A DNA stretch of 64,000 nt. Source: Escherichia coli. Lineage in GTDB: Bacteria > Pseudomonadota > Gammaproteobacteria > Enterobacterales > Enterobacteriaceae. Under the pieces are notes generated by a model. The model ran no database searches and had not been told where the DNA came from. It saw only the letters and a program-made list of their open reading frames with translations. Location: the NCBI RefSeq assembly GCF_013122565.1, contig NZ_CP053258.1. One strand, 5' to 3'. Positions 36,618-45,465 of this stretch are shown in pieces. Positions within the stretch are counted from its first letter, which is position 1. Every line of letters starts with the position of its first letter. Position numbers and translations under genes: made by a program.

Positions 36618-37517
36618 CACTTTATCGAAATGGCCATCCATTCTTGCGCGGATGGCCTCTGCCAGCTGCTCATAGCGGCTGCGCAGCGGTGAGCCAGGAC
36701 GATAAACCAGGCCAATAGTGCGGCGTGGTTCCGGCTTAATGCACGGCAGATAAACAACCCCATCGCGTTTGCGTTCCGGCGGCACAGCCAGCGCTGGCAA
36801 TAAAGTGATCCCGCTACCTGCCGCCACCATGTTGCGCAGCGTCTCCAGGCTGGTCGCGCGGAAGTGTGTATCTTCATCCGCCCCGGCTTCAAAACAGAAA
36901 CCCATTGCCTGATCGCGCAAACAGTGACCATCTTCCAGCATCAGCAGTTTTTCCCCTGCCAGATCGGCCATCGGTACGCATTCGCGGTTCGCCCACGGGT
37001 GATCTTCATAGATAGCCAGCAACATTGGCTCATCAAACAACGGCACTTCAATGAATGCTTCGCTCTCTTTCACCAGCGCGAGGATCACGCAATCGAGTTT
37101 GCCGCTGTCCAGTTGCGCCAGTAACTGGTGGGTCTGTGCTTCATGCAGATACATTTCCAGCTTTGGAAAGGTCTGGTGCAGCATCGGGATAATATGCGGT
37201 AGCAGGTACGGTCCAACCGTGGGAATCAAACCAATATGCAGCGGTCCGGACATCGTCTCGCCCTGCTGGCTTGCCATCTCTTTAAGGACTTTCACCTCAC
37301 GCAGCACGGTACGCGCCTGATCCACCAGCAGCATTCCCGCCTGGGTGAACAACACTTTACGGCTGGTCCGCTCCAGCAACATCACGCCCAGCTCATCTTC
37401 CAGCTTACGAATTTGCCCGCTAAGCGTCGGCTGGCTAACGTGGCAGGAATCTGCTGCACGCCGAAAATGGCGGTGTTCAGCCAATGCCACCAGGTACTCA
37501 AGATCACGAATATTCAT
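36600..37517 (-). CDS. oxyR: LysR-family oxidative-stress regulator OxyR
   Basis: 305 aa from [40 protein letters not shown]; convergent with and overlapping the sthA 3' end. Confidence 0.97.
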
Positions 37518-37612
37518 TATCCATCCTCCATCGCCACGATAGTTCATGGCGATAGGTAGAATAGCAATGAACGATTATCCCTATCAAGCATTCTGACTGA
37601 TAATTGCTCACA
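37518..37612. promoter_or_regulatory. oxyR-oxyS divergent promoter region with OxyR operator
   Basis: 95-bp interval between the oxyR start codon and the oxyS 5' end; position-based call. Confidence 0.6.
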
Positions 37613-37721
37613 GAAACGGAGCGGCACCTCTTTTAACCCTTGAAGTCACTGCCCGTTTCGAGAGTTTCTCAACTCGAATAACTAAAGCCAACGTGAACTT
37701 TTGCGGATCTCCAGGATCCGC
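37613..37721 (+). ncRNA. oxyS: OxyS small regulatory RNA
   Basis: Sequence GAAACGGAGCGGCACCTCTTTTAACCCTTGAAGTCACTGCCCGTTTCGAGAGTTTCTCAACTCGAATAACTAAAGCCAACGTGAACTTTTGCGGATCTCCAGGATCCGC matches remembered oxyS. Confidence 0.93.
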
Positions 37722-37730
37722 TTTTTTTTT
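37702..37730 (+). terminator. oxyS intrinsic terminator
   Basis: Stem gcggatc-tccag-gatccgc followed by T10. Confidence 0.9.
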
Positions 37731-37770
37731 TATTCTACAGGCCCACAACAAGAGAGCCTGATAGTAACGG

Positions 37771-39054
37771 TTACTCAATGCGATCTTTGACAATAAAGAA
37801 GTAACACAACGCCCCGGTGAACGTCACACAGGCCGCGATAACCAACGCCAGATTAAACGAGTGTGTGGTATCCACTACCCAACCGGTTACGATCGGAGCA
37901 AAGGAAGCAAAAACAAAACTGCCAAAGTTTTGAATCCCGGCGATGGAAGCCACTTTTGTTTCTGACACCATCACCTGCACCAGTCCCCATGCAGACGTTC
38001 CCGCGAAATGCACGCAGAATAGCGCCATTGAGATAAACGCTACCGCCTGAGCTGGCGAGGAAGATTGCACGACCAGCAACGTGCCTAATGCCGACATCAT
38101 CAAACCGCAGACAATAGCCGTTTTACGCGTCTTCGCCAGGTCGTAGCCTTTTTTCGCCAGTCGATCGACAACAATACCGTTTACCCACATCCCGACTGCC
38201 GCCGCGAGGAAAGGAATCGCCGCCACCCAACCGGTTTTCGCCAGACTGAAACCTTGCTCGGCCTGCAAATAACCGGGTAACCACGCGATGTAGAGCCAAC
38301 CGGTATAATTGACGCCAGAGAAACCTAAAATCATCCCCCAGGTTGTCCGATGCTTAAACAGCGCCAGCCACTCGCTAAATTGCAGCTGTGGACGCGGTTT
38401 AACCGGCGCGGAGAGATACGTCCGTTCTTCGTCAGTCAGGACAAACTGCGCCCGGTTGCGATACCACGCGTACCAACAGATCCCAACCAGAATCCCCGCC
38501 ACGCCGATGATGACGAACATCGTCCGCCAGCCCCATGCCAGCTGCATCAATACAAGAGCAGGAGGCGCGATAGCCTGACCGATAACGGTAGATGAGTTAA
38601 AAATCCCCAGCGCCGTGCCGCGTTCTTTTTGTGCATACCAGTCGGTGATCGACTTTACTCCCGCAGGCATAAATGGCGCTTCGCCAATACCCAGACCGAT
38701 ACGCATTAAAATAAAGTGGCTAAAAGAATTAACCATTCCTGTTAATGCCTGCATTAATGACCAGAATATTAAGCCTGCGCCTAAAACTATTCGTGGGCCA
38801 AAGCGGTCTAGCAAAATACCGGAAGGAAGTTGTGAAAAACCATAAGACAGAGAAAATGCAGAAAGCAAAAAACCAAACTCTGTCGCTGATAATCCTAACT
38901 CGCCACGAATCGCTTCGCCTGCCACGCTCAATGACGAACGGTCGAGAAAATTAACGATCCCCGCCATAAATAATAAAACCAGGGTCACTGTCTGAATACG
39001 ACGAATCCGTTGCGGTTTATTACCCGCAACACTGGTTGACACATCAACGTCCAT
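37771..39054 (-). CDS. MFS transporter, anion:cation symporter (ACS) family, putative sugar-acid (hexonate/hexuronate) permease
   Basis: 427 aa ORF, about 12 predicted TM segments, ACS-like N-terminus (LVLLFMAGIVNFLDRSSLSVAG, LDRFGPR); AAGGAG RBS 7 nt upstream of ATG; not present at this locus in K-12. Confidence 0.85.
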   Translation of the reverse strand: MDVDVSTSVAGNKPQRIRRIQTVTLVLLFMAGIVNFLDRSSLSVAGEAIRGELGLSATEFGFLLSAFSLSYGFSQLPSGILLDRFGPRIVLGAGLIFWSLMQALTGMVNSFSHFILMRIGLGIGEAPFMPAGVKSITDWYAQKERGTALGIFNSSTVIGQAIAPPALVLMQLAWGWRTMFVIIGVAGILVGICWYAWYRNRAQFVLTDEERTYLSAPVKPRPQLQFSEWLALFKHRTTWGMILGFSGVNYTGWLYIAWLPGYLQAEQGFSLAKTGWVAAIPFLAAAVGMWVNGIVVDRLAKKGYDLAKTRKTAIVCGLMMSALGTLLVVQSSSPAQAVAFISMALFCVHFAGTSAWGLVQVMVSETKVASIAGIQNFGSFVFASFAPIVTGWVVDTTHSFNLALVIAACVTFTGALCYFFIVKDRIE

Positions 39055-39120
39055 TTTTAGCTCCTTGAGCGGAATTAATCGATTTGATGACTATTCAGAA
39101 AATAATTAAGCGAACCGTTA

Positions 39121-40335
39121 TTACCAGTTCCACAATGTGCCATCTTCCAGTCGTGCGACGGGGAGATACGCCGGGTCATACGGATATTTCGCCGCCAGTT
39201 TCTCATCGAAAGAAATACCCAGCCCCGGTTCATCGCCTGGGTGCATATAACCTTCATCGAAGCGCCAGCTGTGCGGGAAGACTTCAAGCATTTGTTCGGA
39301 ATAGCCCATGTACTCCTGAACGCCAAAGTTTGGCACCCAGAGGTCAAAATGCAGCGCCGCCGCATGACAAACAGGCGATAAATCTGAAGGGCCATGCGAA
39401 CCGGTACGTACCTGATAAAGCGATGCAAAATCGGCAATCCGTCGCATCCCGGTAATGCCGCCTGCATGGGTAATCGTCGTGCGAATATAGTCAATCAGCT
39501 GCTCTTCGATTAACTGCTTGCAGTCCCAGATACTGTTAAACACTTCACCGACCGCAATCGGCGTCACGGTGTGCTGGCGAATCAGACGGAAACATTCCTG
39601 GTTCTCGGCAGGCGTAGGATCTTCCATCCAGAACAGGCGGTAATCCTCAATGCTCTTCCCAAAGCGCGCCGCTTCGATGGGGGTCAGGCGATGGTGCATG
39701 TCATGCAACAGATGTTCGTTAAAACCGAACTTATTACGCACCGCTTCAAATAACTTCGGCGTAAAATCGAGATACTTTTCTGAAGACCACAACTGCTCTT
39801 CTGGCCACAGGCCTTTGGTTGCCGGTTCATACGCCAGTCCTTTGCCCTTCGCCAGGCCATAAGTGGTTTGCATACCCGGTACACCACACTGCACACGAAT
39901 CGCCTTAAAGCCCATGTGCTGGTGCTTTGCATAGTCTTCAAGGACTTCATCAATCGTACGCCCGGTGGTGTGGCAATAAACCATCACGCCTTCACGAGAA
40001 GCACCACCAAGCAGTTGATACAATGGCATATTTGCCGCTTTAGCTTTGATATCCCACAACGCCATATCAATGGCAGAAATGGCTGACATCGTGACGGGGC
40101 CACGTCGCCAGTAAGCACCTTTATAAAAGAATTGCCAGATATCTTCGATACGGCTGGCATCGCGGCCAATTAGTTGTGGACAAAGATGATCTTTCAGATA
40201 AGAAGCGACCGACAATTCGCGACCATTTAACGTGGCATCTCCTAATCCACAAAGTCCGCTTTCAGTGGTTATTTTAAGCGTAACGAAATTACGCCCTGGG
40301 CAAGTAACAAAAACATCCGCAGCAATAATTTTCAT
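39121..40335 (-). CDS. enolase-superfamily dehydratase, ManD/RspA-like (putative D-mannonate or related acid-sugar dehydratase)
   Basis: 405 aa from [25 protein letters not shown]... ending ...[22 protein letters not shown]; closely resembles remembered RspA; AGGAG RBS; ORF track extends 20 codons upstream. Confidence 0.85.
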
Positions 40336-40744
40336 TATTGCAATCTCCTGTGTTGTAAATAGACGTTTCAAACTTAATTTTACGCCTACTACCATACAAG
40401 AGAGAAAAAGCGATTATTCAACCGTGATCACATTAAAAACAAAAATTTCCATCGAGGAGAAAAAATACCCTCAAAAACCACCTGAATAATTAACCATTAT
40501 CGTTAAAACAACACGTTAAATAATCACATAACAAACTCCATTAATCATTAAAAATGGGCACAGCAATAGAAAATAATTATATTCAATTAATTAAAACATG
40601 CATTGGTTGATGTATTGAAAATATGATTTTTATGGGGGGGAGTGAAGGTAAAGAAGACACAATAATAAAAAGGAATATGACAAATAATGGTTCTGGTTGG
40701 ACGTTAAATTTAAGGTCACCAGAATGATGACAAATTTCTGCCTG

Positions 40745-40795
40745 ATGCGGCGTAAACGCCTTATCCGCCTACGAAGTGTCGCACTTTGTAGGCGT
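40745..40795. repeat. REP (repetitive extragenic palindrome) element downstream of argH
   Basis: gcctgatgcggcgtaaacgccttatccgcctac... typical REP consensus. Confidence 0.7.
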
Positions 40796-40800
40796 GGTAA

Positions 40801-40821
40801 ACTCCCCATTTTCAGGGGAGC
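40801..40821 (-). terminator. argH terminator-like hairpin
   Basis: ctcccc-attttca-ggggag inverted repeat immediately after argH stop; weak U-tract. Confidence 0.5.
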
Positions 40822-40833
40822 AATATAAACAAA

Positions 40834-42207
40834 TTACTCTAACCGAGCCTGCGCAAAAGCAATTGCCTGCGCCACCTGCTGCGGTGAGACGCCGCCTTTT
40901 GCCGCACGCTTGTCGAGGCACGATTGTAGCGACAGAATCGGATAGACATCTTCGCCAATCACCTGACTGAATTTCTGCAACTCACTGAGTGGCAGATCTT
41001 CCAGCGGTTTGCCCTGACGAATGGCTTCCACCACCGCTTCACCCACAATATGGTGCGCCTCGCGGAAAGGTACGCCTTTCGCCACCAGGTAATCCGCCAG
41101 TTCGGTGGCGTTGGCGTAACCCTGCTGAGCCGCTTCCTGGCAACGTGGACGTTTCACCTGAATGCCGTCCAGCACCAGCGCCGCCATATGCAGGCAGTCC
41201 AGCCAAGTATCGAGCGCGTCGAACAGACCTTCTTTGTCTTCCTGCATATCTTTGTTGTAAGCCAGCGGCAAACCTTTCAGCGTCATCATCATGCCAGTTA
41301 ACGCGCCCTGCACCCGACCACATTTACCGCGAATCAGCTCCAGCGCATCCGGGTTTTTCTTCTGCGGCATTAATGATGAACCGGAAGTCACGCGGTCAGA
41401 AAGCTCCACAAACCCCGCTTCGCCGGTGTTAAAGAAAATCAGATCTTCAGCAAAACGCGACAGATGCACCATGCCGATAGCGGCAGCAGAAAGCAGTTCC
41501 AGCACGTGGTCACGGTCAGAAACGCTGTCGAGACTGTTACGGGTCGCTGAAGCAAAACCCAGCCAGCCAGCTAACTGTTCACGGTCGATTTCATAAGCCG
41601 TTCCCGCCAGCGCGCCACAGCCTAACGGACTGACATCCAGACGCTTAAGCGCATCCTGCAAACGGCTTTCATCACGCGCCAGCATCTCAACATAGGCCAG
41701 GCACCAGTGCGCGAACGTCACCGGCTGGGCGCGTTGCAGGTGAGTGTAACCTGGCATGACCGCGTCCTGATTGTTTTGTGCGGTTTCCACCAGCGCCGAT
41801 TGCAGCTGCCGGTTAGCCGTCAGCAACTCGCCAACGGTATCTTTGCACCACAGTTTCAGGTCTGTCGCTACCTGATCATTACGACTACGCCCGGTATGCA
41901 GCTTTTTGCCTAACTGGCCCACTTTGTCGATCAGTTTGCCTTCCACCCAGCTATGAATATCTTCGGCGTCGCTTTCGAGGATTTGTTGTGGCCTGGCGCG
42001 AACATCTTCCAGCAGCACGTTCAGCGCCTCTTCCAGTTGCGCCTGCTCTTCTGCGGTTAACACGCCGACCGTTACCAGGGCTTTGGACCAGGCCACAGAG
42101 CCAACAATATCCTGCTCCGCCAGACGGTAATCAAAGCGCAGTGAGTCGTTGAATTGTTTGAACCGTTGATCTGCTGCCTGGGTAAAACGCCCGCCCCAAA
42201 GTGCCAT
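40834..42207 (-). CDS. argH: argininosuccinate lyase
   Basis: 457 aa [40 protein letters not shown]... Confidence 0.98.
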
Positions 42208-45364: not shown

Positions 45365-45465
45365 GTAGGCCGGATAAGGCGCTCGCGCCGCATCCGGCAC
45401 TGTTGCCAAACGCCAGCGCTGCAATAATGTCGGATGCGATGCTTGCGCATCTTATCCGACCTACG
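45365..45465. repeat. REP/BIME element pair between argE and ppc
   Basis: Inverted REP copies gtaggccggataaggcgctcgcgccgcatccggcac and gtcggatgcgatgcttgcgcatcttatccgacctac. Confidence 0.8.

Follow-up and report, generated by a model that had tools for sequence, protein, structure and literature searches.

The window analysed in this study is a 64-kb stretch of the Escherichia coli chromosome in which ppc, argE, argCBH (minus strand), a 3.1-kb segment, oxyS, oxyR and sthA follow one another. The 3.1-kb segment lies between argH and oxyS (located at 37613-37722 by an Rfam match) and consists of manD and an MFS transporter gene, both on the minus strand. Positions 40336-40833 are the intergenic region between argH and this accessory manD-MFS operon, which is strain-variable. 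The features of the region are shown in Table 1.

Table 1. Features between argH and oxyS. Coordinates are those of the 64-kb window. Diversity and variable columns refer to ten aligned Escherichia copies; P values are for being less variable than manD third codon positions.
Feature	Position	Strand	Diversity	Variable columns	P	Remark
MFS transporter gene, anion:cation symporter type, operon gene 2	37771-39054	-				427-aa ORF
manD, enolase-superfamily D-mannonate dehydratase, RspA paralogue, operon gene 1	39121-40335	-				NCBIfam ManD equivalog
Putative 5' untranslated leader	40336-40365	-				Homology to mapped rspA start; predicted unstructured
Block C (operator to ATG)	40336-40405		0.025-0.031	6/70	3e-5	
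Putative -10 hexamer TAAGTT	40371-40376	-				17 nt downstream of TTGTAT; aligns with TAGATT, TAAATT, TAAGTT of rspA-type promoters
12-mer CTTGTATGGTAG, putative RspR operator core over the predicted -35	40389-40400	-				Invariant in 16 aligned promoters
Putative -35 TTGTAT	40394-40399	-				Homology; inside the 12-mer
Block B (TGTGA site)	40412-40449		0.015	1/38	3e-5	
CRP-like site TGTGATCACGGTTGAA	40417-40432	-				TGTGA half alone conserved; fixed spacing, conservation
Block A, core TAACGTGTTGTTTTAACGAT	40497-40539	-	0.018-0.045	6/43	0.013	Chosen post hoc
Rest up to REP	40450-40496 and 40540-40735		0.07-0.23	47-60%		Not below third codon positions
Distal AT-rich spacer without detectable sequence constraint	40540-40735	.		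57-60%		Third positions: 31%
REP element	~40744-40794	-				Repeated intergenically; strong hairpins
argH terminator-like hairpin (GCUCCCC / GGGGAGU) then UUUACC	40801-40821	-				-13 kcal/mol, z = -3.6

The manD product scored 732 bits with the NCBIfam ManD equivalog, whose cutoff is 550. Among solved structures E. coli RspA (4IL2) comes closest to it, and it shares 91.8% identity with resident E. coli RspA. In a phylogenetic tree the window ManD formed a long branch beside all enterobacterial RspA proteins; the tree points to no clear source, and the donor lineage of manD therefore cannot be named. For the MFS protein, the best NCBIfam match was the D-galactonate transporter subfamily, with a score below the family cutoff, and its orthologues found inside the rsp clusters of other Enterobacteriaceae are 81-92% identical to it.

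Comparison of E. coli genomes revealed that in K-12 and O157:H7 just 54 bp separate the oxyS terminator from the argH stop codon, against 3.1 kb in the window. The segment is present in 1860 of 5426 complete E. coli genomes (34%), CFT073 included. In CFT073 argH is c4919 and oxyR is c4922, and manD and the MFS gene should therefore be c4920 and c4921; our literature search found no paper on the regulation of the manD and MFS genes, nor one naming c4920 or c4921 in connection with CFT073. The whole 3.4-kb stretch from 37500 to 40900 showed 97-98.6% identity to other copies, 98.6% being the best among the complete-genome matches listed, which thus do not include the window's own lineage, and the intergenic region showed 90-95% identity to most E. 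coli copies. The full intergenic region was found in 1713 E. coli genomes against 1860 with the segment, which leaves about 147 without the argH-proximal end. Two of these were examined, and both carry a larger island between argH and manD-MFS, in the order argH, araD-like gene, DeoR regulator, sugar ABC transporter, epimerase (L-ribulose-5-P 3-epimerase, as in E. coli E200086, L028 4191-13745), FGGY kinase, AT-rich leader and manD-MFS. Homology of these copies to the window leader stops about 300 bp upstream of manD, and the DeoR gene is part of the neighbouring sugar cluster, not of manD-MFS. The argH-oxyS spacer of E. coli has three states: empty, manD-MFS, and the larger island followed by manD-MFS.

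Analysis of base composition revealed a GC content of 0.339 over 40336-40833 and 0.302 over 40336-40735, the latter being the lowest-GC 400-bp stretch of the window (mean 0.521, sd 0.041; next lowest 0.39). A preliminary description of this DNA had called the interval strikingly AT-rich compared with flanks of about 50% GC, and this was borne out: GC across the region is not uniform (0.30 against 0.52), and the A/T runs quoted there are present at 40433-40448, 40547-40561 and 40662-40675. The size of 0.43 kb given for it was right only in part, the interval being 498 bp long and AT-rich for 400 bp, because the part with the REP element and terminator has a normal GC content. These elements occupy the final 98 bp. 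The REP element fits the definition of an imperfect palindrome repeated at many intergenic sites: positions 40738-40800 match 2-8 other places per E. coli genome at about 83% identity among the matches listed, and the hairpins have a folding energy of -25.5 kcal/mol (z = -4.1). The sole Rfam hit of the region is a weak, sub-threshold match of the REP part to naRNA4, a REP-derived family. The argH terminator hairpin is not the same as the K-12 argH terminator, and it was missed by the consensus scan because its U tract is short. Elsewhere in the window, just downstream of argE, a match to naRNA4 (REP325-derived) was found at 45368-45461, with 59.2 bits against a gathering score of 59.5.

Very AT-rich promoters of horizontally acquired genes can be silenced by H-NS, a process known as xenogeneic silencing. 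The region resembles such promoters in its AT-rich composition and in its location upstream of an accessory operon, and it contains the stretch of at least 100 bp with an AT content well above the genome average that is expected of them. From this composition H-NS silencing of the manD promoter is plausible, and the distal spacer may bind H-NS. Taken as exclusive, the view of the preliminary description would make the region a horizontally acquired, H-NS-silenced promoter without a dedicated regulator, its operon being cryptic or under the control of global factors only. The window-minimum GC over 400 bp, the occurrence of the module in about a third of genomes and the lack of a regulator gene in the segment agree with this explanation. 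However, the H-NS high-affinity motif is not enriched: the region has two hits with 2 mismatches, and the window as a whole has 65 where 52 would be expected, so that the H-NS motif scan suggested by that description did not rise above chance. Unlike H-NS-silenced promoters, moreover, the window module has a host-like GC content (0.50) in its coding parts and a putative specific operator of a resident repressor, a 12-nt motif described below that is common to every rspA-type promoter and whose repressor gene is core E. coli. Overall, an explanation by H-NS only seems improbable to us.

No regulator gene was found in or beside the 3.1-kb segment, as the preliminary description had stated, and no overlooked regulator ORF came to light there. 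The small ORFs of the region gave no Pfam match; those at 40232-40489 and 40630-40809 were rejected as genes, both being without a Pfam match and the second also being broken by indels in other strains. A blastx search of the region for gene remnants, with every neighbouring protein of the related loci as target, had no hit below E = 1, and no homologues of RspR, YnfA, RspB, YdfJ or YdfI were found anywhere in the window. Since no regulator is encoded with the operon, regulation must come from the host.

A scan with the MFS protein using one genome per species returned 21 loci. The argH-manD-MFS-oxyR arrangement of the window was found in three Escherichia species or clades. In Citrobacter sp. 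R56 (L020 7208-8000) the argH-oxyR site has the promoter, the 12-mer and the MFS gene intact, with manD present as an internally deleted remnant. Orthologues of the MFS and ManD/RspA genes occur in 12 other genera within a ynfA-rspA/MFS-rspB-ydfJ-ydfI-rspR-ydfG(-dcp) cluster, and the MFS gene adjoins the ManD/RspA gene in the rsp clusters of Enterobacter, Lelliottia, Siccibacter, Atlantibacter, Pluralibacter, Klebsiella, Raoultella and another Citrobacter. A record titled Chryseobacterium sp. 18061 (CACSKA010000003.1) also holds a typical enterobacterial rsp locus (MFS 88% identity) and is probably mislabelled or contaminated. The clusters encode a 228-aa GntR-family protein that is the orthologue of E. 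coli RspR (YdfH), its gene matching the gene annotated rspR over the full length with 78% nucleotide identity and the protein being 85% identical. The N-terminal DNA-binding domain of RspR is about 95% identical between E. coli and Enterobacter, and a conserved motif should therefore be read alike in both. The preliminary description had raised the loss of a regulator gene from the locus, which our comparison did not support: a regulator was never found in the argH-oxyR module of any genome examined, and the regulator has not been lost, because 5417 of 5426 complete E. coli genomes have rspR, as must at least 1851 of the 1860 module carriers.

RspR has been studied in K-12, where it represses rspAB and its footprint on the rspA promoter covers 31 bp, with the palindrome ATACnnGTAT at the centre (Shimada et al. 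2021, PMC8249747); earlier work on rspA and RspR (Sakihama et al. 2012) is cited in the same paper. The K-12 rspA start was mapped 30 nt before the ATG, and genomic SELEX gave a single target of RspR in K-12 (PMC8249747).

Comparative analysis revealed that the approximately 115 bp nearest manD are homologous to the rspA-type promoter, a block common to the rsp loci and E. coli rspA. Alignment of 16 promoters identified 12 consecutive invariant positions, CTTGTATGGTAG, which run from 40400 to 40389 in the window. A scan of 16 sources that tolerated one mismatch placed this 12-mer at 26 intergenic sites, where it precedes rspA, the MFS gene, ydfI or manD; the 64-kb window holds it once. It ends 53 nt before the manD ATG, compared with 49-63 nt at the rspA genes of other genera; its position is that of an operator that overlaps the promoter some 50-65 nt ahead of the start codon. 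A TGTGA sequence is nearly invariant in the 16 promoters and starts 32 nt upstream of the 12-mer, which corresponds to a gap of 27 nt, and 23 of the 26 sites have TGTGA at this distance. The composite motif TGTGA-N25-29-CTTGTATGGTAG appears once or twice per rsp-type locus in which a ManD/RspA gene lies beside the transporter gene and is always upstream of rspA or the MFS gene: one copy where rspA/manD comes first, two (before the MFS gene and before rspA) where the MFS gene comes first. In 12 further genera it is found ahead of rspA, of the transporter gene or of both.

Of the published RspR box, ATACnnGTAT, the 12-mer includes the right arm. The E. coli rspA promoter has the palindrome ATACTTGTAT immediately before GGTAGTAG, and the 12-mer therefore represents the right arm plus neighbouring bases and would lie within the 31-bp footprint. 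Even with one mismatch allowed, the published box ATACNNGTAT was not found in 40336-40833, because the window carries only the right arm (TCTCTTGTAT), with TCTC where the left arm ATAC is expected; the shared core was found only by aligning related loci. Two classes of sites were identified: the full palindrome occurs in all rspA promoters, and the right arm only in the MFS, ydfI and window sites. The window copy does not have the full RspR palindrome that the published definition requires; by the comparative features of invariant core, position, TGTGA spacing and gene family it belongs with the promoters adjoining rsp-cluster genes that share the core. In three genera ydfI too has the 12-mer ahead of it, at a distance of 76-94 nt, and in one genus (Enterobacter sp. 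kpr-6) a copy with two mismatches lies 31 nt upstream of rspR; the copies before ydfI and rspR are at L013 11819-11830, L015 13192-13203, L009 14532-14543 and L007 10054-10065. From these sites the RspR regulon there looks larger than the single target of K-12. No half-palindrome site was found near ydfI in K-12, and the single-target result, coming from a strain without a half-palindrome copy, therefore neither supports nor contradicts binding of RspR to such sites.

The incomplete palindrome also allows a reading in which the 12-mer and TGTGA belong to the core promoter or bind some other shared factor, RspR being idle at this operon. Only the right arm of the box is present, and the 12-mer overlaps the -35 region, so polymerase contacts could explain part of its conservation; K-12 genomic SELEX would in addition have been blind to half-palindromic sites. 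However, 12 invariant positions across 12 genera far exceed the needs of a -35 hexamer, the same half-palindrome precedes the MFS and ydfI genes within clusters that contain rspR, and no other regulator gene consistently co-occurs with the motif. On this evidence we give the reading a low probability.

The preliminary description had suggested scanning for sigma-70 and CRP elements, and neither scan was positive on its own terms: the consensus promoter scan called no promoter on the manD strand, and matches to the CRP consensus were not above chance in the 64-kb window. Weak hexamers were placed by homology instead (Table 1). The start of manD transcription is likely to be near 40365, about 30 nt before the ATG, by analogy with rspA, and an AGGAG Shine-Dalgarno sequence is present at 40345-40349. 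The putative -10 hexamer TAAGTT has 3 of 6 consensus positions and was not called by the scan. If, alternatively, TAAAAT (40377-40382) were the -10 and TTCTCT the -35, the operator would fall in the spacer, an arrangement still compatible with repression. The CRP-like site TGTGATCACGGTTGAA matches TGTGA-N6-TCACA at 7 of 10 positions; it may be a CRP site, for which its conservation and fixed spacing speak more than the consensus match. Its centre at 40424.5 would be at -59.5 to -60.5 from a start at 40365 or 40364, where a class I site is at about -61.5. A rise of rspAB in glucose-transporter mutants has been reported (PMC6786474), which is consistent with a role of CRP, if indirect.

Since the operator is common with the rspA promoter, RspR, whose gene lies at another chromosomal locus, is most likely the missing regulator. 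The reading we favour, as reasonably probable, is that the operon is controlled in trans by resident RspR from a copy of an rspA-type promoter with CRP as co-activator. The statement of the preliminary description that the operon is either cryptic or controlled by host factors holds in part: the operon is absent from K-12 and its regulation comes from the host, but the promoter, instead of being an anonymous xenogeneic sequence, reproduces the promoter and operator of the rspA type. The locus anatomy, the homology, the conservation of the motif and the presence of rspR in nearly all E. coli are observed directly; the start site, binding of RspR at the window copy and the role of CRP are inferred. 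Overall the interval is an ordinary promoter region, and its functional control part would mainly be the 115 bp nearest manD, a weak sigma-70 promoter with -35 TTGTAT, a 17-nt spacer and -10 TAAGTT, in which the rspA-type operator overlaps the -35 and the TGTGA half-site, about 60 bp before the start, stands where a class I CRP site would. RspR, a GntR/FadR-type repressor from the distant rsp locus, would bind the operator and block RNA polymerase, a sugar-acid inducer would release it, and cAMP-CRP would be needed for full activity. H-NS binding and RspR control could coexist, as they are not mutually exclusive.

Comparison with the K-12 rspA system revealed the same CTTGTATGGTAG over the -35, a TGTGATCAC motif 27 nt upstream, a similar distance to the start codon and a downstream ManD/RspA dehydratase (92% amino-acid identity). 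Unlike the K-12 rspA promoter, the window copy is without the palindrome left arm, has a spacer 1 nt shorter and has about 285 bp of extra AT-rich DNA upstream; its partner gene encodes an MFS transporter instead of RspB, and its site is argH-oxyR, far from rspR. The MFS and ydfI promoters in the rsp clusters of Klebsiella, Raoultella, Enterobacter, Lelliottia and relatives have the same half-palindrome TTCTTGTATGGTAG as the window, and in the MFS promoters the TGTGATC spacing is the same as well. These promoters, whose sites are putative and known from sequence, differ from the window in lying within a few kb of rspR.

Constraint along the region was assessed with ten aligned Escherichia copies and measured against the third codon positions of manD, where pairwise diversity is 0.085-0.091 and 124 of 404 columns (31%) vary. 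Blocks B and C, which hold the TGTGA site and the stretch from operator to ATG, were far less variable than these positions; less variable too was Block A with modest significance (Table 1). Our analysis suggests that the distal 285 AT-rich bp are mostly unconstrained spacer save for this one modestly conserved 43-bp block, and the distal spacer contains no gene remnant, Pfam match or Rfam family. Block A accompanies the module whichever of the three upstream contexts it has, with partial retention in Citrobacter sp. R56; it occurs only in modules of the argH-oxyR type and not in rsp loci. A further explanation is that the distal AT-rich part is functional, Block A being the site of a second regulator or an upstream promoter part and the whole 0.4 kb a control region. 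Retention of Block A in the three contexts, and a diversity 2-5 times below synonymous sites, speak for it. However, Block A was chosen post hoc and is modestly significant, it could not be tied to any motif, no promoter was called on the manD strand, and the DNA flanking it is more variable than synonymous sites. We regard a functional distal part as rather unlikely.

Extending the favoured reading, we tentatively propose, as possible but short of probable, that RspR may control a second, strain-variable operon through a half-palindromic operator in about a third of E. coli, with Block A adding a further input. If true, an acquired transporter-dehydratase pair would have joined a resident regulon without bringing its own regulator, the accessory operon reusing the operator of the paralogous core operon so that the resident repressor governs both, and the RspR regulon would differ between E. 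coli strains. A cryptic L-gulonate pathway at the rsp locus of CFT073 has reportedly been described by Wichelecki and colleagues, and the proposal would bear on the cryptic sugar-acid (L-gulonate/D-mannonate) pathways studied in that strain.

Several minor features of the distal DNA were also recorded. Block A contains direct TAACG repeats 13 bp apart. As a KdgR box it was rejected, with 8 of 19 positions matching the consensus by eye; a UxuR/ExuR box, likewise compared by eye with its consensus, was rejected since the DNA around its ATTGGT half-site (about 40603-40608) is not conserved. At 40634-40640 the window has seven consecutive G (seven C in the manD direction); the nine other aligned Escherichia copies all have a shorter or broken run.
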